Source: a phage. Taken from it: a stretch of DNA of 64,000 nt. Made by a program: the position numbers and the translations under genes. Shown here in pieces: positions 20,514 through 31,070 of this stretch (position 1 is its first letter; every line of letters starts with the position of its first letter). The stretch is taken from sequence record PZ445134.1. One strand, 5' to 3'. The notes beneath the pieces were generated by a model. The model ran no database searches and was not told the DNA's origin. It saw only the letters and a program-made list of their open reading frames with translations.

Positions 20514-20521
20514 TATAAATA
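20514..20521 (+). promoter_or_regulatory. late promoter TATAAATA (gene 34)
   Basis: exact TATAAATA 35 nt upstream of the gp34 ATG. Confidence 0.65.
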
Positions 20522-20555: not shown

Positions 20556-23500
20556 ATGGTTGACATCAAACGTAAGTTCAGGGCCGAAGATGGTCTTGAC
20601 GCAGGCGGTGATAAGATAGTTAACGTTGCGCTTGCTGACCGCACAGTTGGCACCGATGGCGTGAACGTTGACTTTTTGGTGCAAGAAAACACCGTACAGA
20701 ATTATGACGAGACGCGCGCGTATACAAAAGATTTTATTGTTCTTTATGATAATCGTTTTTATCAAGCTTTAAGCGATATTCCAGCTCCGGCAGGCCCTTT
20801 CTCTTTGGCTAAATGGAAGGCAACTCGTACAGATGCAGAATGGATTACAGTTCAAGGCGGAGATTTCCAATTATCAGTAGGTAACTCTATTGCGGTTGAT
20901 ACTTCAGCTGGCACTGATATTAATTTCACTTTGCCTCAAAATCCTTTAGATGGCGATACAGTTATTTTGTCTGATATTGGCGGTAGAGTAGGCTATGTAA
21001 AAGTTCAAATTACTGCAGCGGCTCAAAGTATTGTAAACTTTAGAGGACAACAGGTTCGTTCAGTTTTAATGACGCACCCAAAATCTAAAATGGTCTTCAT
21101 TTTTAGCAACCGCCTATGGCAAATGTATGTTTCTGATTACGAACGTAATGCAGTCACAGTAACTCCTGCTAAGCCATATCAAGCACAACCTAACGATTTT
21201 ATCATTCGACATTTTACATCAGCCGCTCCTATTAATATTACATTGCCTCGTAATGCTAATAATGGCGATATTATTAATTTAGTGGATTTAGACAAATTAA
21301 ACCCATTATATCACACAATTGTCAAAACTTACGATGATACAACTTCTATACGAGAAGCTGGTGTTCATGTAGCAGAAGGACGTAATACTGCGGAAGCATT
21401 CTTTGTTTATGATTCTGCCAATAGTTTATGGCGTGTTTGGGAAGGTGACCAGAAATCTCGTTTACGTATAGTTCGTAATGATACTGATTTACGCCCTAAT
21501 GAAGAAGTTCTTGTTTTTGGAACTGATAATAATACAATCTCGACGGTAAATCTTACTTTGCCTACAGATATTTTGTCTGGCGATACTGTTAAAATATCGT
21601 TGAATTATATGCGTAAAGGGCAAACTGTAAAAATTAAAGCTGCTGAAGGCGATACAATTGCTAGCAGTATTTCTTTATTACAGTTCCCAAAACGTTCTGA
21701 GTATCCACCTGATGCACAATGGGTTTCTGTTAGTGAGCTGGAATTTAATGGTGATACTTCGTATGTACCTGTACTTGAGTTATCTTATATAGAAGATTAT
21801 TCATCTGAAACAAAATATTGGGTAGTTCAACAAAACACCGTAACCGTCGAACGAGTCGATGCATCTAGCAATAACACTCGAGCTCGTTTAGGTGTTATTG
21901 CTCTTGCTTCTCAAGAGCAAGCAAATGTCGATTTAGAAAATGCTCCTGGTAAAGAACTGGCTATTACTCCTGAAACATTAGCAAATCGTACAGCAACTGA
22001 AACTCGTCGTGGTATTGCTCGTATTGCAACAACTGCACAAGTTAACCAGAATACCGATTTTGCATTCCAAGACGACTTGATTATTTCTCCTAAGAAATTG
22101 AACGAACGTACAGCAACTGAAACCCGTAGAGGTGTTGCTGAAGTTGCAACTCAGGCTGAAACTAATGCTGGAACAGATGACACCACTATTATTACTCCTA
22201 AGAAATTGGATGCCCGTCAAGGTTCTGAAGTTTTATCCGGTATTGTAAAATACACATCTACGACTGGTACTACAGCTGCTACTATTCGCGGTAATGCTGG
22301 GACTAACGTTTATAACAAAGCCGTAGATAATTTAACTATTTCTCCAAAGGCTCTTGACCAGTATAAAGCTACCCCTACTCAGCAGGGTGCAGTAATTCTT
22401 GCTATTGAAAGTGAAGTTATCGCTGGCGAATCACAAGCCGGTTGGGCTAATGCTGTAGTGACCCCTGAAACTCTGCATAAGAAAACTTCTACTGATGGAC
22501 GTATTGGTTTAATTGAAATTGCTACGCAAGCAGAAACTAACACTGGAACTGATTATACTAGAGCAGTAACGCCTAAGACGTTAAATGATAGGAAAGCTAC
22601 GGAAGGATTATCTGGCATAGCCGAAATTGCTACGCAAGTTGAATTTGATACTGGAACTGACGATACTCGTATCTCGTCTCCACTGAAAATTAAAACTCAT
22701 TTTGATTCTTCTGACCGTACCAGTGTTAATTCTGATTCCGGACTTATTGAAGAAGGAACCTTGTGGAACCATTATACTCTTGATATTTCTAAAGCAAATG
22801 AAACACAACGCGGTACACTTCGCGTAGCGACCCAGGCAGAATCTAATGCAGGAACTTTAGATGATGTTCTTATTACTCCTAAAAAGCTTTTAGGGACTAA
22901 GTCCACTGAAACGTCTGAAGGCGTGATTAAGGTTGCTACTCAGGCTGAAACTGTAACAGGAACTTCTGCTAATACTGCTGTATCACCTAAGAATTTAAAA
23001 TGGATTGTTCAATCAGAACCATCATGGACTGCTACTACGGCAATTCGTGGATTCGTTAAAACTTCATCTGGTTCTATTACATTTGTCGGTGACGATACTC
23101 AAGGTAATACCCAGGATTTGAATCTTTATGAGAAAAATAGTTATGCTATTTCTCCATATGAATTAAACCGTGTACTTGCTAACTACTTACCGTTGAAAGC
23201 TAAAGCAGCTGATAGTAATTTGTTAGATGGTCTAGATTCTCTTCAGTTCATCCGTAGAGACATCGACCAGACGGTTAATGGTTCTTTAAGTTTTACTAAA
23301 CAGACCAACCTGAGTGCTCCTTTAGTATCTACAAGCACTGCTTCTTTTGGTTCCGAAGCATCTGTTACTCGTAGATTAACTCTTAATGACTCTAGCGGTT
23401 CCGAAATAATTTTCACTAAAGGAACCCAATCTCTTAGTAATAAAGAGAATTTCGTTGTTAGAGCATGGGGTAATAGCGCTACAGATGGTGCCCGTGATAC

Positions 23501-24389
23501 AGTATTTGAAGCGGGTGACGAAACCGGATACCATTTCTATTCTCAGCGCGCTGCTGATAATAGAGTATCATTTAATATTAATGGAACACTTTATTCAACA
23601 GGTATTGTTTCTACAAATGGATTAAATGTTACAGGTGTTTCTACCTTTACCGGGCCTATTAGTGCTACAGGCGAAATTGTTTCTAGTTCTCCTATTGCAT
23701 TCAGAGCTATTAACGGTAACTATGGTGTTATGCTTTATAATGCTGGTAACAGTTCTTATATTGCATTAACTAACTCAGGTGACCAGACCGGGACGTTTAA
23801 TAACTTACGCCCGATCACGATTAACAATGCCACAGGATTAGTTCGTCTTGACAACGGCGTTCAAATCACAAGTGGTGCAACAATAACTACCGGTGGGTTA
23901 ACTGTAAATAACAGAATTATTTCTAACGGCGTTAAAACTGCCACTGTTTATACCGATAAACCAACAGCTTCTACTGTAGGTTTTTGGTCTATTGACATTA
24001 ACGATTCTGCTGTATATAGCCAATTCCCTGGATACTGGACGCGTGATAACAAAGGTAACCGTGACCAAGAAATTAAATATCCTGGTACTTTGACTCAATT
24101 TGGTAATAGCTTAGATTCGCTTTATCAGGATTGGATTTGTTATCCTACAGGTGCAAATGGTGGTAGTATTCGTTATACTCGTACCTGGCAGAAAAATAAA
24201 GATGCTTGGACTTCATTTGCAATGGTATTTGATAGTGGCAACCCACCTTCACCTAGCGATGTCGGTGCTATCCCATCTGATAATGCTGTTATTGGAAACC
24301 TTACTATTCGAGACTTCTTACAATTAGGAAATGTGAGAATTGTTCCGGACCCGGTTAACAAAACAGTTAAATTTATATGGGTTGAATAA
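20556..24389 (+). CDS. 34: long tail fibre proximal subunit gp34
   Basis: 1277 aa; first gene of the plus-strand late module; late promoter TATAAATA at 20514-20521 and AGAGGA SD. Confidence 0.93.
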   Translation: MVDIKRKFRAEDGLDAGGDKIVNVALADRTVGTDGVNVDFLVQENTVQNYDETRAYTKDFIVLYDNRFYQALSDIPAPAGPFSLAKWKATRTDAEWITVQGGDFQLSVGNSIAVDTSAGTDINFTLPQNPLDGDTVILSDIGGRVGYVKVQITAAAQSIVNFRGQQVRSVLMTHPKSKMVFIFSNRLWQMYVSDYERNAVTVTPAKPYQAQPNDFIIRHFTSAAPINITLPRNANNGDIINLVDLDKLNPLYHTIVKTYDDTTSIREAGVHVAEGRNTAEAFFVYDSANSLWRVWEGDQKSRLRIVRNDTDLRPNEEVLVFGTDNNTISTVNLTLPTDILSGDTVKISLNYMRKGQTVKIKAAEGDTIASSISLLQFPKRSEYPPDAQWVSVSELEFNGDTSYVPVLELSYIEDYSSETKYWVVQQNTVTVERVDASSNNTRARLGVIALASQEQANVDLENAPGKELAITPETLANRTATETRRGIARIATTAQVNQNTDFAFQDDLIISPKKLNERTATETRRGVAEVATQAETNAGTDDTTIITPKKLDARQGSEVLSGIVKYTSTTGTTAATIRGNAGTNVYNKAVDNLTISPKALDQYKATPTQQGAVILAIESEVIAGESQAGWANAVVTPETLHKKTSTDGRIGLIEIATQAETNTGTDYTRAVTPKTLNDRKATEGLSGIAEIATQVEFDTGTDDTRISSPLKIKTHFDSSDRTSVNSDSGLIEEGTLWNHYTLDISKANETQRGTLRVATQAESNAGTLDDVLITPKKLLGTKSTETSEGVIKVATQAETVTGTSANTAVSPKNLKWIVQSEPSWTATTAIRGFVKTSSGSITFVGDDTQGNTQDLNLYEKNSYAISPYELNRVLANYLPLKAKAADSNLLDGLDSLQFIRRDIDQTVNGSLSFTKQTNLSAPLVSTSTASFGSEASVTRRLTLNDSSGSEIIFTKGTQSLSNKENFVVRAWGNSATDGARDTVFEAGDETGYHFYSQRAADNRVSFNINGTLYSTGIVSTNGLNVTGVSTFTGPISATGEIVSSSPIAFRAINGNYGVMLYNAGNSSYIALTNSGDQTGTFNNLRPITINNATGLVRLDNGVQITSGATITTGGLTVNNRIISNGVKTATVYTDKPTASTVGFWSIDINDSAVYSQFPGYWTRDNKGNRDQEIKYPGTLTQFGNSLDSLYQDWICYPTGANGGSIRYTRTWQKNKDAWTSFAMVFDSGNPPSPSDVGAIPSDNAVIGNLTIRDFLQLGNVRIVPDPVNKTVKFIWVE

Positions 24390-24397
24390 GAGGTTAT

Positions 24398-25522
24398 ATG
24401 GAAAAATTTATGGCAAGGTTTGGACAGGGATACGTCCAAACGCCGTTTTTATCGGAAAGCAATTCAGTTAGATTTAAGCTAAGTATAGCGGGTTCATGCC
24501 CGCTTTCAACAACTAATCCGTATATTTTGTTCCAAAACGAGCCTTTAGGGTTGCAGTCTTTTGGTATTGGACTAAATGTTAGGGTGATAAATCCGGAAAA
24601 TGGAACTATAGTTGATAGTAAATTATACAATTTTGCGCCTACAAATAATGCAACTTCAGCTGCATTTATTTCGTTTGTTAATACATACGCAGATAATTTC
24701 ATTTTCGCATTTATTTCTAATAACAAATTTAATTTGCCGCCGGAAATAATTGAATGGTTTAAAGCTGCTGGGAGTTCAGTTATACCGTCAATTGAAGTTG
24801 CTAGTCTTGTTGATATTTCATATTCAGCGTTTTATGTTTCAGGTAAAAATACTATTGCATTAGAACACATAAAATACAGTAATAAGAAAACAATTTCTGA
24901 TTACGCAACTCCATTAGATATTGTATATGACTCTATTGCTGATATAGGTGCTACCGGCTATCCTAGACGTACATATGAAGCTCTAGAAACGTTTTTATCT
25001 CATGTTGGAAGAACTAACAATGAAATAAAAAGGATGCCTACATCATCCCTTGTTACTCCTATCGCAAACTATGGATTAAAGCCTACAGATTTTCTTTATT
25101 TGAAATTTCAATTAATGGCTGATGAAGAATTATTAGAGGAAGGAACCACAAGACTTTCAATTCGTTTCTTTAAGTCTCCATCTAGCTCTCCTATATCATC
25201 TAAAGATATAAACTTTGATGGAACTGCCGGGGAGTGGAAGCTATATGAAGAATACGTTGAAATACCAGCTGAAGCTGATGGCTTTACAGTATATTGTTAC
25301 CGTACGGCCTCAGTCGGTCAAGGTGGACTAAGAAATGTTATTTTCACTGAAGTATCATGTAACGGAAGTATAGCAAAACCAGCCGAGTTTGGTATAAACG
25401 GTATTCGTGTTAATTACATTGATGAATCATTAACCGGTAATGATATAATGGACTTGCCTACTCAGTTATCTAACGACACAGGTAAGGTATTTGGGCAGGA
25501 ATTTAAAGAGTACACAGAATAA
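24398..25522 (+). CDS. 35: long tail fibre hinge connector gp35
   Basis: 374 aa; position and size as T4 gp35; AAGAGG SD. Confidence 0.9.
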   Translation: MEKFMARFGQGYVQTPFLSESNSVRFKLSIAGSCPLSTTNPYILFQNEPLGLQSFGIGLNVRVINPENGTIVDSKLYNFAPTNNATSAAFISFVNTYADNFIFAFISNNKFNLPPEIIEWFKAAGSSVIPSIEVASLVDISYSAFYVSGKNTIALEHIKYSNKKTISDYATPLDIVYDSIADIGATGYPRRTYEALETFLSHVGRTNNEIKRMPTSSLVTPIANYGLKPTDFLYLKFQLMADEELLEEGTTRLSIRFFKSPSSSPISSKDINFDGTAGEWKLYEEYVEIPAEADGFTVYCYRTASVGQGGLRNVIFTEVSCNGSIAKPAEFGINGIRVNYIDESLTGNDIMDLPTQLSNDTGKVFGQEFKEYTE

Positions 25523-25547: not shown

Positions 25548-25555
25548 TATAAATA
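25548..25555 (+). promoter_or_regulatory. late promoter TATAAATA (gene 36)
   Basis: exact TATAAATA between the post-gp35 hairpin and the gp36 SD. Confidence 0.6.
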
Positions 25556-25581: not shown

Positions 25582-26238
25582 ATGGCCGATTTAAAAGCCG
25601 GAAGTACAGTTGGTGGTTCCGTCATATGGCATCAAGGCAATTTTCCTTTAATGCCAGCTGGCGATGACATCCTATATAAAACATTTAAATTATACACCGA
25701 ATATAACAAGCCAAAAGCGGCTGATAACGATTTCGTATCTAAAGCAAACGGTGGGACATATCTCAAAAAGGTAATCTTTAACGAAGGTGTTGCAGTCAAA
25801 ACAACAGATGACCAAACGAATGGTATTTTTTCTGGTGGTGGTGACGCCGCGACATTCGACCAAACAAACATGGATATTGTTTCGTGGTATGGTATTGGGT
25901 TTAAATCATCTCAAGGTACAGGTGAAAGAACTGTTGTAATTGATACTCGCACCGGTAATATAAGTTCTAAAGGCGTTATTGAAGCATCTCAATTCAGAGC
26001 CACAACGTTAGCACCTTTAAATAATTACGACCTTACTCGCAAAGATTATGTTGATAGTCAAATAAATACAGTTAATGCTAATGCAAACAGTCGTGTACTC
26101 CGTTCAGGAGATACGATGACCGGCGCGCTAACCGCCCCAAACTTTTTCTCACAGAATCCTGCATCTCAACCCTCGCATGTTCCACGATTTGACCAAATTG
26201 TTATTAAGGATTCTGTTCAAGATTTCGGCTATTATTAA
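25582..26238 (+). CDS. 36: long tail fibre distal connector gp36
   Basis: 218 aa; late promoter 25548-25555; AAGGAG SD. Confidence 0.88.
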   Translation: MADLKAGSTVGGSVIWHQGNFPLMPAGDDILYKTFKLYTEYNKPKAADNDFVSKANGGTYLKKVIFNEGVAVKTTDDQTNGIFSGGGDAATFDQTNMDIVSWYGIGFKSSQGTGERTVVIDTRTGNISSKGVIEASQFRATTLAPLNNYDLTRKDYVDSQINTVNANANSRVLRSGDTMTGALTAPNFFSQNPASQPSHVPRFDQIVIKDSVQDFGYY

Positions 26239-26246
26239 GAGGACTT

Positions 26247-29200
26247 ATGGCTACTTTAAAACAAATACAATTTAAAAGAAGCAAAACTGCAGGAGCACGT
26301 CCTGCTGCTTCAGTATTAGCCGAAGGTGAATTGGCTATAAACTTAAAAGACCGTGTACTTTTTACTAAAGATGACCAAGGAAATATTATTGATCTGGGTT
26401 TTGCTAAAGGTGGTAGTATTGACGGGAATGTTATTCATACTGGCAATTATAACCAAACTGGCGATTATACTTTAAATGGAACCTTCACTCAGACAGGTAA
26501 TTTTAATTTAACTGGTATTGCTCGAGTAACTCGCGATATTATTGCCGCCGGGCAGATTATGACCGAAGGCGGAGAACTTATTACAAAAAGTTCAGGTACA
26601 TCACATGTTCGTTTTTTCGATGGCAATAGCCGCGAACGTGGCATTATCTTTTCGCCAAATAATGCTGGAGCGACCACTCAGGTAGTTAATATTCGCGTAC
26701 AAGATTATGCCGCTGATAGCGAAAGCATTTATGCGTTTTCAGGCAACGGTGTATTTTCTTCACCTGAAGTATCGGCACGGAAATCTATTTCGTCTCCACA
26801 AATTCTGACCAATAAAGTTATTACAGATGGGAAGAAGACAGGCGATTATGATATCTATTCATTAGCAAATAACACTCCATTGGCAGAAAGCGAAACGGCT
26901 ATTAACCACCTCCGCGTTATGCGAAATGCCGTAGGATCTGGTATATTCCATGAAGTTAAAGATAACTACGGGATAACCTGGTACGCCGGTGACGGGTTAG
27001 ATGCCTATCTTTGGTCGTTTACCTGGTCCGGTGGATTGAAAGCAGGCCATTCTGTTTCTATAGGTCTTCCAGGTGGCTCTAAAGGATACTCTGAACTAGG
27101 GACTGCTTCGATTGCTCTTGGTGATAATGATACCGGATTTAAATGGCATCAGGACGGATATTTTCATACAGTAAACAACGGAACAAGAACTTTCGTTTAC
27201 GGTCCTGCGGAAACACAAAGCCTTAGAAAAATGGTTATGGGTTATTCTCCGGATGGGATTCTTATGACAACGCCACCGACAGAAAACTATGCATTAGCCA
27301 CTGTTGTTACTTACCATGATAATAACGCGTTTGGAGATGGTCAGACTCTTTTGGGATATTATCAAGGCGGTAACTATCATCATTATTTCCGCGGCAAGGG
27401 TACCACAAACATTAATACTCATGGCGGTTTGTTAGTTACTCCAGGTAATATTGATGTTATTGGCGGTTCTGTTAATATTGATGGTCGTAATAATGCTTCT
27501 ACGCTGATGTTTAGAGGTAACACAACTGGTAGCAGTTCAGTTGATAATATGACAATTTCTGTATGGGGTAATACGTTTACTAATCCTAGTGTAGGTAATC
27601 GTAAAAATGTCATGGAAATTTCTGACGCAACTAGCTGGATGAGTTATATTCAAAGACTTACTACCGGTGAAGTAGAAATGAACGTCAATGGTTCATTTGA
27701 ATCATCCGGTGTTACTGCTGGAAATAGAGGAGTTCACACAACAGGCGAAATTTCATCTGGAGCAGTTAATGCGCTTCGCATTTGGAATGCAGATTATGGA
27801 GCCATTTTTAGACGTTCAGAAGGCAGTCTTCATATTATTCCAACTGCTTACGGTGAAGGTAAACATGGCGATATCGGTCCACTTCGCCCGTTTAGTATGG
27901 CTTTAGATACTGGTAAAGTTACTATTCCAGATTTACAATCAAGTTACAATACGTTTGCTGCTAACGGTTATATTAAATTTGTTGGTCATGGAGCGGGTGC
28001 CGGCGGTTATGACATTCAATATGTTCAAGCAGCTCCTATTTTCCAGGAAATTGATGATGATGCTATAAGCAAATATTATCCTATTGTTAAACAGAAGTTT
28101 TTAAACGGCAAAGCTGTTTGGTCTTTAGGTACTGAAATTAATTCGGGTACATTCGTTATTCATCATCTGAAAGAAGATGGTTCACAAGGCCATACGTCTC
28201 GTTTTAATCAAGACGGTACTGTTAACTTCCCAGATAACGTTTCTGTCGGCGGTGGTGAAGCTACTATTGCTCGCAATGGTAATATCTGGTCTGATATCTG
28301 GAAAACGTTTACTTCAGCAGGCGACGTAACTAATATTCGCGATGCAATAGCTACTCGTGTTGCTAAAGAAGGCGATACGATGACCGGCACTCTTTGGATT
28401 AATAAAGATGCTGCCGGAATAGTTCTTAATCCTCCTTTGGCTAGTGATTCGTCATTTATTCGTTCTGATACGGCCGGGGCCAATAATTGGTATATTGGTA
28501 AAGGCGGTGCCGACAATGGTCTAGGTTTTTACAGTTACATTACACAAGGCGGTGTATACATAACAAATAACGGCGAAATATCGCTTTCTCCTCAAGGTCA
28601 AGGAACATTTAATTTTAATAGAGACCGCCTTCATATAAACGGTACACAATGGGTTGCGCATAAATCTGGCGCCTGGGGTGACCAATGGGGTTTAGAAGCT
28701 CCTATATTTGTAGATTTTGGATCCGTCAGCAATGACTGCTATTATCCTATTATTAAAGGAAAATCTGGTATTACTAACGAAGGATATTTTTCCGGCGTAG
28801 ATTTTGGTATGCGACGCATTACTAATAACTGGGCACAAGGTATTATTCGTGTAGGTAACCAGGAAAATGGCCATGACCCACAAGCTATATATGAATTCCA
28901 TCATAACGGCACTTTTTATTCTCCTAACATGGTTAAAACCGGCGCAAGACTATCAGCTGGTGGTGGTGACCCGGTATGGACTGGACCATGTCTTGTTATT
29001 GGTGATAATGACACTGGCTTAGTATGGGGTGGCGACGGTCGAATAAATATGGTTGCCAATGGTATACATATTGCAAACTGGGGAGCAGGCTATCAATCTC
29101 ATCCTGGGCTTTGGGATTCAACCGGCGCTTTTTGGACAGAAACTGGAAGAGCTATCGTTTCTCATGGGCATCTCGTTCAGGCAAATGATAGTTATTCAAC

Positions 29201-29561
29201 GTATGTCCGTGATGTTTATGTCCGTTCTGATATTCGCGTTAAAAAAGACCTTGTTAAATTTGAAAATGCTTCTCAGAAGCTTTCTAAAATTAACGGTTAC
29301 ACTTATATGCAGAAGCGAGGCCTAGATGAAGAAGGCAATCAGAAATGGGAACCTAACGCAGGTTTGATAGCTCAAGAAGTTCAAGCTATTTTACCTGAAT
29401 TAGTTGAAGGTGACACTGATGGCGAAGCTTTACTTCGTTTGAACTATAACGGTGTAATTGGTTTAAATACAGCTGCAATCAATGAGCATACTGCAGAAAT
29501 TGCAGAACTTAAGTCAGAGATTGAAGAGCTTAAAAAATTAGTTAAATCATTGTTAAAATAA
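26247..29561 (+). CDS. 37: long tail fibre distal subunit gp37, with C-terminal intramolecular-chaperone-like domain
   Basis: 1104 aa; C-terminal about 113 aa (SDIRVKKDL...GLIAQEVQAILPELV...LRLNYNGVIGLNTAAINEH...coiled coil) resembles autoproteolytic chaperone domains of phage fibres. Confidence 0.9.
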   Translation: MATLKQIQFKRSKTAGARPAASVLAEGELAINLKDRVLFTKDDQGNIIDLGFAKGGSIDGNVIHTGNYNQTGDYTLNGTFTQTGNFNLTGIARVTRDIIAAGQIMTEGGELITKSSGTSHVRFFDGNSRERGIIFSPNNAGATTQVVNIRVQDYAADSESIYAFSGNGVFSSPEVSARKSISSPQILTNKVITDGKKTGDYDIYSLANNTPLAESETAINHLRVMRNAVGSGIFHEVKDNYGITWYAGDGLDAYLWSFTWSGGLKAGHSVSIGLPGGSKGYSELGTASIALGDNDTGFKWHQDGYFHTVNNGTRTFVYGPAETQSLRKMVMGYSPDGILMTTPPTENYALATVVTYHDNNAFGDGQTLLGYYQGGNYHHYFRGKGTTNINTHGGLLVTPGNIDVIGGSVNIDGRNNASTLMFRGNTTGSSSVDNMTISVWGNTFTNPSVGNRKNVMEISDATSWMSYIQRLTTGEVEMNVNGSFESSGVTAGNRGVHTTGEISSGAVNALRIWNADYGAIFRRSEGSLHIIPTAYGEGKHGDIGPLRPFSMALDTGKVTIPDLQSSYNTFAANGYIKFVGHGAGAGGYDIQYVQAAPIFQEIDDDAISKYYPIVKQKFLNGKAVWSLGTEINSGTFVIHHLKEDGSQGHTSRFNQDGTVNFPDNVSVGGGEATIARNGNIWSDIWKTFTSAGDVTNIRDAIATRVAKEGDTMTGTLWINKDAAGIVLNPPLASDSSFIRSDTAGANNWYIGKGGADNGLGFYSYITQGGVYITNNGEISLSPQGQGTFNFNRDRLHINGTQWVAHKSGAWGDQWGLEAPIFVDFGSVSNDCYYPIIKGKSGITNEGYFSGVDFGMRRITNNWAQGIIRVGNQENGHDPQAIYEFHHNGTFYSPNMVKTGARLSAGGGDPVWTGPCLVIGDNDTGLVWGGDGRINMVANGIHIANWGAGYQSHPGLWDSTGAFWTETGRAIVSHGHLVQANDSYSTYVRDVYVRSDIRVKKDLVKFENASQKLSKINGYTYMQKRGLDEEGNQKWEPNAGLIAQEVQAILPELVEGDTDGEALLRLNYNGVIGLNTAAINEHTAEIAELKSEIEELKKLVKSLLK

Positions 29562-29563
29562 TA

Positions 29564-29580
29564 GAGGGGCTTCGGCCCCT
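29564..29580 (+). terminator. hairpin between genes 37 and 38
   Basis: GAGGGGCTTCGGCCCCT (UUCG loop), directly after the gp37 stop. Confidence 0.5.
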
Positions 29581-29591
29581 TGGAGGTTTAT

Positions 29592-30365
29592 ATGGCAGTT
29601 GAAGGACCGTGGGTAGGATGGTCTGCAAGGGTACAGACTGGAGATCCTTGGATGGGTGGTGCCGCACAGAGATTAAGAATGGGCATTCCGTTCTGGATGA
29701 GTAATATGATAGGTCGATCTGTTGAAGTAATTCACACACTTGGAGCAGACCATAACTTCAATGGTCAATGGTTCCGAGATAGATGTTTTGAGGCAGGCAG
29801 TGCACCTATAGTGTTTAATATCACTGGAAATTTAGTATCATATAGTAAAGATGTTCCATTATTCTTTATGTATGGCGATACACCAAATGAATATGTTACT
29901 TTGAATATTCATGGTGGTGTTCATATGTGGGGCCGAGGTGGTAATGGTAGCGTAAATGGAAGCCCAGGCACAAATGGCGGCGATGTAATCCAAAATGATA
30001 TCGGCGGAAGACTTCGTATTTGGAACTACGGCGTTATTGCATCAGGTGGCGGTGGCGGTGGTGCAGTGTCGTTAAAGAATAGCTGGCCTGCAAATTCTAC
30101 AGCAGGTGGCGGTGGTGGTAGACCATTTGGCATCGGCGGTGGCGGCGTTAATTGGCCTGGTGGTAATGCTAGTTATGACGGTCCAGGTGGTGGTGGTGGT
30201 ACAAGTCAATATGGCGGTGGGCGTGGCGGTGATGCTGGAGGTTGGGGCGGAGATGGATGGGGTAAGAACTTGTCCAGATCTGGCGGTGGTGCTCCTGGCA
30301 GAGCAGTATTCGGAAGTTCACCGTCATGGGGTGCTACAGGCACAATCTACGGCTCCTGGATTTAA
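29592..30365 (+). CDS. 38: tail fibre adhesin gp38 (T2-type, glycine-rich motifs)
   Basis: Start set at ATG 29592 ([10 protein letters not shown]...) after GGAGG SD (track begins at an upstream TTG); conserved N-terminal region then poly-Gly motifs separating variable segments. Confidence 0.85.
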
Positions 30366-30391: not shown

Positions 30392-30410
30392 TTGATAAAT
30401 GGGAGGTAAT

Positions 30411-31070
30411 ATGGCAGCACCAAAAGTATCATTTTCGCCTAGTGATATTTTATTTGGGTTGCTAGACCGCATTTTCAAAGATAACGCCTCTGGAAATATT
30501 CTTATTTCAAGAGTTGCTGTTGTAGTTCTTTTGTTCCTAATGGCACTAATATGGTACAAAGGGAATATTTTTATGGATTATTACGTGAGGTCTAAATATG
30601 ATACTTACACAGAAGTAATTCAAAAAGAAAGAAATACACGATTTGAATCTGCGGCTTTAGAGCAACTACAAATAGTCCACGTCACATCAAGGGCGGATTT
30701 TAGTTCGGTGTATTCTTTCAGACCTAAAAATCTAAATTATTTCGTCGACCTTATTGCGTATGAAGGTAAGTTACCTAGCACAGTAACTGAAAAATCTATG
30801 GGAGGATTTCCTGTTGATAAAACGACAGCAGAATATTCAGTCCATTTAAGTGGACTTCACTTTACTTCTAAAACAGATTTTGCTTTCTTACCTACCAAAT
30901 CAAAAACTCCGGAACTGGCGTATATGTATAGTTGTCCTTACTTCAATTTGGATAACATATATGCTGGAACTGTTTCTATGTATTGGTATAAGGGGTCGGA
31001 TGTGTTAAATGAAGAACGCTTGGCTGCAATATGCAACCAAGCAGCAAGGATATTAGGGCGGGCTAAATAA
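30411..31070 (+). CDS. t: holin T
   Basis: Start at ATG 30411 (MAAPKVSFSPSDILFG...) after GGGAGGT SD; matches recalled T4 holin; late promoter 30384-30391. Confidence 0.92.
   Translation: MAAPKVSFSPSDILFGLLDRIFKDNASGNILISRVAVVVLLFLMALIWYKGNIFMDYYVRSKYDTYTEVIQKERNTRFESAALEQLQIVHVTSRADFSSVYSFRPKNLNYFVDLIAYEGKLPSTVTEKSMGGFPVDKTTAEYSVHLSGLHFTSKTDFAFLPTKSKTPELAYMYSCPYFNLDNIYAGTVSMYWYKGSDVLNEERLAAICNQAARILGRAK

Follow-up and report, generated by a model that had tools for sequence, protein, structure and literature searches.

How does a T-even bacteriophage recognise its host with the tip of its long tail fibre: by the end of the fibre protein gp37 itself, as in T4, or by a separate adhesin, gp38, mounted on a gp37 end that a chaperone domain has first shaped and then vacated? 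The question is raised by the long-tail-fibre locus in a stretch of 64,000 nucleotides of phage DNA (sequence record PZ445134.1), hereafter the window. This DNA comes from a Mosigvirus (RB69-like) T-even phage, an assignment that follows from 95.8% identity to phage FL31 and 95.5% to RB69 across 24 kb. The interval of interest, 29200-30365, comprises the last 120 codons of gene 37, a spacer of 30 nt and the whole of gene 38. A preliminary description of the same DNA, drawn from its letters, had delimited a receptor-recognition module by these positions; the end coincides exactly with the end of gene 38, while the start lies 26 nt upstream of the chaperone domain of gp37. As argued below, the locus very probably encodes a T2-type receptor-recognition tip of the long tail fibre, working through an intramolecular chaperone (IMC) at the end of gp37 and through gp38, in an RB69-like phage. 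The argument makes use of the following features:

26247-29561, + strand: gp37, distal long-tail-fibre subunit, a precursor of 1104 amino acids (aa) whose predicted mature form is residues 1-993; annotated gp37 homologues exist in RB69, FL31, JS10 and RB51
28989-29225, + strand: distal tip of gp37, residues 915-993, from the alignment to S16 gp37 (6F45_A)
29226-29558, + strand: IMC or Peptidase_S74 domain of gp37, S994-K1104, 111 aa, with a long C-terminal helix at its end; from Pfam PF13884, the S16 IMC, the MyRF ICA domain and a structural model
29226-29243, + strand: S994-D-I-R-V-K999, predicted motif of autocleavage and catalysis, with the cut at R993^S994; from invariance in homologues and the S16 register
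29592-30365, + strand: gp38, T2-type tail-fibre tip adhesin, 257 aa; from Pfam, PHROG and PDB matches and an AlphaFold (AF2) model

The C-terminal domain of gp37

Judged by its sequence, the C-terminus of gp37 is a member of the family of self-cleaving intramolecular chaperones (S74). Pfam PF13884 (Peptidase_S74, 'Chaperone of endosialidase') matches residues 994-1053 with E 2.5e-12 and 47.3 bits (gathering cut-off 22), and the last 111 residues are matched by the S16 gp37 construct (PDB 6F45; E 1.7e-32) as well as by the intramolecular-chaperone autoprocessing (ICA) domain of MyRF (7DC3; E 0.013). In addition, the PHROG matches of this domain always fall at the C-terminal end of tail-fibre profiles. 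The resemblance to self-cleaving chaperones that had been proposed for roughly the last 113 residues is borne out by the PF13884 and S16 matches, with a length of 111 residues in the S16 register.

At the beginning of the domain gp37 carries the motif DVYVR-S994-D-I-R-V-K999, whose Ser and Lys stand five residues apart and which we take to hold, in the pair S994/K999, the Ser-Lys dyad of MEROPS family S74. The catalytic residues are conserved: S, D, R and K of the motif are invariant in seven T-even gp37 proteins (window, RB69, FL31, JS10, Bas46, T2 and T6), and S, D and K are so in ten more distant metagenomic homologues. In S16 the last 113 residues cleave themselves off at DLNVS^SDRRIKK, thereby exposing the docking surface for gp38 (PMC7917993), and the gp37 proteins of T2 and T6 are proteolytically processed and capped by gp38 (PMC3157838). 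Read in the S16 register, the predicted cut R993^S994 would free 111 residues in the phage of the window.

The fold of the domain was approached with an AlphaFold model of gp37 residues 961-1104, that is, with a monomer of a trimeric domain. The predicted local distance difference test (pLDDT) of the model is 72-95 across the domain and 68 on average, the part before the motif being disordered, as is expected for a monomer excised from an intertwined trimer. The only meaningful Foldseek matches of this model were the MyRF ICA domain 7DC3 (E 8e-6, probability 1.0) and the endosialidase endoNF 3GW6 (probability 0.87-0.97), and the predicted fold agrees, with moderate confidence, with the S74 chaperone family. 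With the IMCs of endosialidase, T5 pb1 and MyRF (PF13884; 3GW6, 7DC3) the domain shares the hidden Markov model match, the Ser-Lys dyad, the beta-hairpin core and the long C-terminal helix; it differs from them in sequence (12-26% identity) and in that it would serve a fibre tip later capped by a separate adhesin.

A structural precedent is provided by S16. The chain 6F45_A aligns with the gp37 tip plus the IMC (E 9.4e-47), the tip of the window bearing an 11-residue insertion relative to S16, and it is on the crystallised beta-helical tip of S16 gp37 that the docking pockets for gp38 are found (Dunne and Leiman, PMC6851490). The S16 gp37-gp38 pair (PDB 6F45; Dunne et al. 2018) resembles that of the window in combining a beta-helical gp37 tip and an autocleaving IMC with a gp38 made of Trp prongs, a beta-helix and polyglycine II. 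Unlike the window, S16 binds Salmonella OmpC, its gp38 has about 45% identity (26% in the loops) and, besides lacking the insertion, it has S where the window has R immediately before the cut. The T2 pair (Drexler 1986, Riede 1987) is likewise similar in its C-terminal SDxRxK chaperone, in the adjacent position of gene 38, in a hairpin between genes 37 and 38 and in the use of OmpF, but identity between the gp38 proteins is 50% over the whole length and 56% in the loops, and the T2 gp37 is 1341 aa long with a predicted released piece of 99 aa.

It might be thought that the chaperone-like domain is a degenerate, non-cleaving remnant retained on gp37, and that gp38 is attached elsewhere or not at all. 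What speaks for this is that gp37 cleavage in this phage, as in RB69, would be deduced by homology. Nevertheless the explanation is very improbable, as the SDxRxK motif, with its Ser-Lys dyad, is intact and does not vary, and the N-terminal prongs of gp38, which need an exposed gp37 end, are conserved. Moreover, the IMC-coding stretch is among the most conserved of the locus, with at least 90% identity in all RB69-type relatives, which argues for purifying selection.

gp38 as the adhesin of the fibre tip

gp38 is a full-length adhesin of the T2/T6/S16 type. Pfam GP38 (PF05268) matches it over the entire profile (positions 1-218 of 218) with E 3.7e-81 and 272.6 bits (cut-off 25), an E-value by which a chance match is excluded, and Gp38_N (PF21721) does so over positions 1-40 of 40 with E 6.2e-20 and 71.4 bits (cut-off 25). 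The protein is also matched by PHROG 2056 ('tail fiber protein; host specificity'; E 4.9e-105) and by two solved adhesins, the PP01 gp38 receptor-binding domain (RBD; 9V85, 1.8e-75) and S16 gp38 (6F45_D; 7e-47). The T2/T6-type architecture attributed to gp38 in the preliminary description is thus confirmed by both Pfam families and both structures.

The same membership emerges from the predicted fold. The AF2 model of gp38 (pLDDT 92.5) superposes on PP01 gp38 9V85 at 1.2 Å root-mean-square deviation (rmsd), with a template-modelling (TM) score of 0.94 (target-normalised), and on full-length S16 gp38 6F45_D with TMq 0.85 and an rmsd of 2.5 Å; besides these two, no fold of the PDB matched the model below E 5. 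The modelled fold is a beta-helix followed by a polyglycine-II sandwich. Among structures, the closest match is the PP01 RBD (9V85; Terasaki et al. 2026), with 65% identity and the five loops A-E in the same layout. In contrast to the window, PP01 binds OmpC of O157, and loops D and E of the window are shorter and of other sequence. When the PP01 loops are mapped through the alignment, the following parts of gp38 can be distinguished, some of which are hypervariable segments (HVS):

29592-29723, + strand: attachment domain at the N-terminus (residues 1-44), which bears the Trp prongs W7, W20 and W35; 100% identical to RB69
29949-29966, + strand: equivalent of receptor loop A, residues 120-125, SVNGSP; PP01 loops mapped via the alignment
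30072-30101, + strand: receptor loop B or HVS2, residues 161-170; PP01 loop mapping, with PANS common to JS10 and MN04
30141-30155, + strand: equivalent of receptor loop C, residues 184-188; PP01 loop mapping
30180-30224, + strand: HVS3 or loop D region, residues 197-211, with A201G, Y203G, F207Y and N211R around a kept Q206
30249-30269, + strand: receptor loop E or HVS4, residues 220-226, GDGWGKN; PP01 loop mapping

The two ends of the protein differ markedly in composition. Glycine accounts for 36.7% of residues 111-257 and for 12.7% of residues 1-110, and six times it occurs in a run of three or more; this richness explains why the local GC content rises to 0.48-0.50 at gp38, compared with about 0.35-0.41 on either side. 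Nearly all columns that stay invariant when 73 homologues are aligned belong to the glycine-rich motifs (GRMs), namely G114-G117, G152-G156, G173-G176, P178, G180 and G183, and the variation is restricted to the stretches between these motifs. This is the alternation of poly-glycine motifs and variable segments that had been noticed beforehand. In the N-terminal part, the docking residues are conserved: W7, W20 and W35 are invariant in an alignment of seven sequences, and W7 and W20 are conserved in at least 90% of the 73 homologues. By means of three such Trp prongs S16 gp38 docks on gp37 (PMC6851490).

A different arrangement of these parts is seen in a protein of 303 aa, P0091, encoded on a 25.7-kb E. 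coli assembly contig. In this protein the N-terminal 157 residues of gp38, which correspond to the attachment domain, the beta-helix and GRM1-2, are joined directly to a gp37 tip and S74 domain (VYCNDVYIRSDRRLKIN). The protein may have arisen as a chimera at a poly-Gly tract, by assembly or by recombination, or may be a genuine alternative fibre tip.

These data bear directly on the choice between an adhesin and a chaperone. In T4, the C-terminus of gp37 forms its own receptor-binding needle domain and carries no S74 domain, while the gp38 of T4 is unrelated, acts as a chaperone and does not enter the virion; the proximal fibre (gp34-gp36 and the gp37 N-terminus) and the organisation of the locus are homologous between T4 and the window. 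If the window followed T4, the end of gp37 itself would be the receptor tip and gp38 an assembly chaperone absent from virions. In some records the homologous gene does bear the name 'distal long tail fiber assembly catalyst', taken over from T4; the RB69 record's own note, however, calls the gp38 of the T2 subfamily the adhesin, the 'assembly catalyst' being a legacy name. Against a T4-like tip it also counts that gp37 ends in an S74 chaperone domain and that the matches of gp38 are confined to adhesins, namely the families PF05268 and PF21721 and adhesin structures. Specifically, when the entire gp37 was compared by phmmer with all sequences of the PDB (E<=1), only S16 gp37, T4 gp34 fragments and MyRF were retrieved and no T4 gp37 needle tip, and no T4-type chaperone family was found for gp38, whose only Pfam matches at E<=0.01 are those of the adhesin families. 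With similarity to neither the T4 gp37 tip nor T4 gp38, the T4-type mechanism was rejected and its probability is close to nil, in agreement with the earlier view that receptor recognition here does not follow the T4 gp37-tip mechanism.

The T2-type module would then operate as follows. gp37 would be made as a precursor of 1104 aa, genes 36, 37 and 38 being expressed together from a late promoter at 25548. The IMC (S994-K1104) would gather three gp37 chains and template the folding of a trimeric beta-helical tip, after which it would be removed by autoproteolysis at R993^S994, dependent on Ser994 and Lys999. Cleavage would expose three hydrophobic pockets on the new gp37 end, into which one gp38 monomer would plug W7, W20 and W35, staying in the virion. 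The glycine-rich motifs of gp38 would pack as polyglycine-II helices in a sandwich that displays five hypervariable loops, and these loops would attach reversibly to a porin of the outer membrane as primary receptor, most probably OmpF in this phage, before the short tail fibres engage.

Receptor specificity and the loop D allele

OmpF is the best prediction for the receptor of gp38, and a reasonably likely one, because the specificity domain and the loops are nearest to the RB69/RB51 group, whose adhesins need OmpF. The specificity domain (residues 111-257) is 90% identical to those of RB69 and RB51 and 95% to those of JS10 and MN04, and at most 59% identical to adhesins specific for Tsx, OmpA or OmpC. 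For the loop windows these values become 77%, 90-92% and at most 56%, loop identity to the Tsx, OmpA and OmpC adhesins themselves not exceeding 44%. The alignment of the variable segments with T2, T6 and other adhesins that had been suggested as a check accordingly places the RB69-type adhesins closest, with the T2 loops at 56%. As for the receptors themselves, RB69 and RB51 require OmpF, plus FhuA and the lipopolysaccharide (LPS) core (PMC3157838), RB51 is OmpF-specific in genome-wide screens (bioRxiv 10.64898/2026.04.02.716166), and FL31 shows a weak dependence on OmpF and TolC (PMC12032242). The broad OmpA/OmpF/LPS-type specificity first envisaged can in this way be narrowed to the OmpF-using RB69/RB51 subgroup, with some uncertainty that comes with a new allele of loop D/HVS3.

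This allele is what distinguishes the window from its relatives. The nearest gp38 proteins are those of MN04 and JS10 (94.9%) and RB69 (94.6%), followed by RB51, RB68 and FL31 (91-92%). The adhesins of RB69, RB51, FL31, JS10 and MN04 are like that of the window in length (257 aa), identity (91-95%), gene order and the possession of Q206; they differ from it by 13-23 aa. Allelic differences are concentrated in the loops: gp38 departs from RB69 at 14 positions, every one of them in residues 120-226, and at 12 of these the distance to loop A, B, D or E is two residues or less. Five residues belong to the window alone among the RB69-type alleles compared, namely K162 in loop B and G201, G203, Y207 and R211 in loop D/HVS3. 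They arise from the substitutions Q162K, A201G, Y203G, F207Y and N211R, the last four of which flank Q206, itself kept and encoded by CAA. Owing to these four positions the window does not match the HVS3 of the OmpF group (PGGAGYTSQFGGGNGG). Moreover, residue K225 aligns to Y230 of PP01, which is reported to cross-link to OmpC (PMC12892980). Since its HVS2 is JS10-like and its N-terminus RB69-like, the gp38 of the window is a mosaic.

The HVS3 patch differs from RB69, FL31, RB51, JS10 and MN04 at about 15 of 51 nt, and the differences include a synonymous one at Ser205, AGT versus TCC. Because synonymous changes are included, the patch looks, from its sequence, as if it had been imported from an unsampled lineage and not mutated in place; an origin by point mutation was rejected on account of the synonymous differences in the same stretch (Ser codon TCC to AGT). 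Database searches underline the novelty of the allele. The exact gp38 protein is absent from a collection of 15 billion sequences, no 90%-cluster representative contains SQYGG or GGGRGG, so the HVS3 variant of the window is absent from the cluster representatives, and an exact DNA k-mer of HVS3 occurs 0 times in IMG/VR and 0 times in GTDB genomes. The JGI metagenomes yielded a single 20-mer match, which falls within an ABC-transporter operon and was discarded as due to chance. No INPHARED record exceeds 90% identity to the 3' 326 nt of gene 38, and with RB69, FL31 and Bas46 the adjoining holin gene shares 99-100% identity.

Could the same T2-type module, with this loop B/loop D allele, be directed to a receptor other than the OmpF of K-12, such as OmpW, another porin or a divergent OmpF of a non-K-12 host? 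The five substitutions, located within loops B and D or beside them, are unique among the RB69-type alleles compared, and it is reported that in RB51 the single change Q206L is necessary and sufficient for a switch from OmpF to OmpW (bioRxiv 10.64898/2026.04.02.716166). The nucleotide divergence of HVS3, with its hint of import from an unsampled allele lineage, points in the same direction, as do the low identity of the 3' part of gene 38 to recorded phages when set beside flanks that are 99-100% identical to RB69 and FL31, and the absence of the exact protein and of the HVS3 k-mer from the collections searched, JGI metagenomes included. On the other side, Q206 is kept, the alleles of RB69, RB51, JS10 and MN04 are by far the nearest, at 90-95% in the specificity domain versus at most 59% for all others, F207Y and Q162K reproduce the residues that T2 gp38, also from an OmpF user, has at these positions, and published receptor prediction based on phylogeny works well for gp38. 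A receptor other than K-12 OmpF is consequently an appreciable possibility, though an unlikely one. In particular, that the allele defined by K162, G201, G203, Y207 and R211 is a natural retargeting variant, binding another porin (e.g. OmpW) or a divergent OmpF allele of no use to RB69-type phages, is improbable; if true, it would be a natural counterpart of the engineered Q206L switch.

Several points weigh against the T2-type reading with OmpF as receptor and have to be set beside its support. Cleavage, virion location, stoichiometry and receptor identity would all be carried over by homology from S16, T2 and PP01, and the IMC model, which has moderate overall confidence (mean pLDDT 68), covers a single chain of a domain that is trimeric. 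Least secure is the step to the receptor: in the loops, gp38 shares only 77% identity with the adhesins whose use of OmpF is verified, and the four unique substitutions of loop D flank the very residue whose single change retargets RB51 to OmpW. In addition, FL31 drops only about 1 log on ompF deletion (PMC12032242), and RB69 is reported to need FhuA and the LPS core besides (PMC3157838).

A separate matter concerns RB68, which was considered as an OmpW reference and set aside. The L206 of RB68, credited with OmpW specificity, belongs to the authors' own stock (bioRxiv 10.64898/2026.04.02.716166). The GenBank RB68 gp38 (KM607004) has Q206 and is identical to RB51 gp38, and for this reason the record is unusable as an L206 reference. 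Either the deposited sequence differs from the stock of the preprint, or the record predates the mutation.

Organisation of the locus and its meaning for T-even phages

The long-tail-fibre locus is complete and lies on the + strand in the order 34-35-36-37-38-t. Gene 38 adjoins the downstream side of gene 37 and the upstream side of the holin gene t, an order shared with RB69, FL31, JS10, RB51, T2 and T6. The remaining features are these:

20556-24389, + strand: gp34
24398-25522, + strand: gp35
25548-25555, + strand: T4-type late promoter box TATAAATA upstream of gene 36; pattern positions
25582-26238, + strand: gp36
29564-29581, + strand: intercistronic hairpin with a 7-bp stem and a UUCG tetraloop (GAGGGGC-UUCG-GCCCCUU), -16.9 kcal/mol, z -2.3
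29582-29586, + strand: Shine-Dalgarno sequence GGAGG of gene 38, 5 nt ahead of the ATG; from the sequence
about 30399 to 31070, + strand: holin t

Late promoter boxes of the TATAAATA type occur on the + strand at 20514, 25548 and 30384, just upstream of genes 34, 36 and t. With boxes at 25548 and 30384 and none between them in the pattern scan, hence none upstream of 37 or 38, genes 36, 37 and 38 probably form, by analogy with T4, one late transcript from the 25548 promoter. The boxes suggest the transcription units 34-35, 36-37-38 and t, their positions alone being suggestive as the count in the window, six, is not above chance. Rfam and tRNA scans of the whole window gave no match.

Between genes 37 and 38, after the stop of the former and ahead of the Shine-Dalgarno sequence of the latter, a hairpin is found at the same place in RB69, FL31, JS10, RB51, MN04, T2, T6 and Bas46, its stem and loop varying in sequence. 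This suggests a conserved element between the two cistrons, perhaps with a role in mRNA stability or translational coupling. The start of gene 38 is the ATG at 29592, giving 257 aa, because Gp38_N aligns from that Met, the annotated homologues all have 257 aa and GGAGG stands 5 nt upstream. The program-made list of open reading frames had extended gp38 to a TTG at 29580, since genes 37 and 38 share one reading frame, separated by TAA-TAG plus eight sense codons. Read-through of this double stop would join the chaperone domain to the adhesin.

A recombination junction lies at about 29480-29620: upstream of it the distal part of gp37 (28470-29480) is 96-100% identical to FL31 and only 49-89% to RB69, and downstream the 5' part of gene 38 (29552-29820) reaches 97-98% identity with RB69 and 82-84% with FL31. 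The highly conserved IMC-coding stretch and the spacer, where identity switches, may serve as the homology patch for adhesin exchange.

Further upstream, gp37 has at residues 450-550 (27594-27896) a Gp34_trimer-like domain, and T4 gp34 structures match it too (E about 1e-11); in the comparison of full gp37 with the PDB the T4 gp34 fragments align to the shaft at residues 418-561; gp34 and gp37 therefore share a shaft module. The shaft is itself mosaic. Its segment 28300-28620 is 98.4% identical to phage ECP52 and 49-59% to RB69 and FL31, the best identity of segment 26560-27320 is 93% (vB_EcoM_P8 and BMB16), and the exact gp37 sequence is absent from a collection of 15 billion proteins. In the neighbouring gp35, a marginal Pfam match to ILEI ('Interleukin-like EMT inducer') is seen at residues 58-131 (30.3 bits versus a cut-off of 27).

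The only new element of the locus is the allele; the module itself is textbook and brings no new principle. Its background is said to reach from Drexler in 1986 and Riede in 1987 to Trojet in 2011 and Dunne in 2018. In most T-even phages host range is determined chiefly by the gp37-IMC/gp38 module, which is already understood from the structures of S16 and PP01 and the genetics of T2, T6, Ox2 and RB51/RB68. The one aspect worth an experiment is a possible effect of the loop D/HVS3 variant on porin specificity. The practical value of the present finding is modest and consists in an OmpF prediction for this phage and in a natural HVS3 variant beside the OmpF/OmpW switch residue, which could be used for testing sequence-based receptor predictors, or as a donor loop in host-range engineering.

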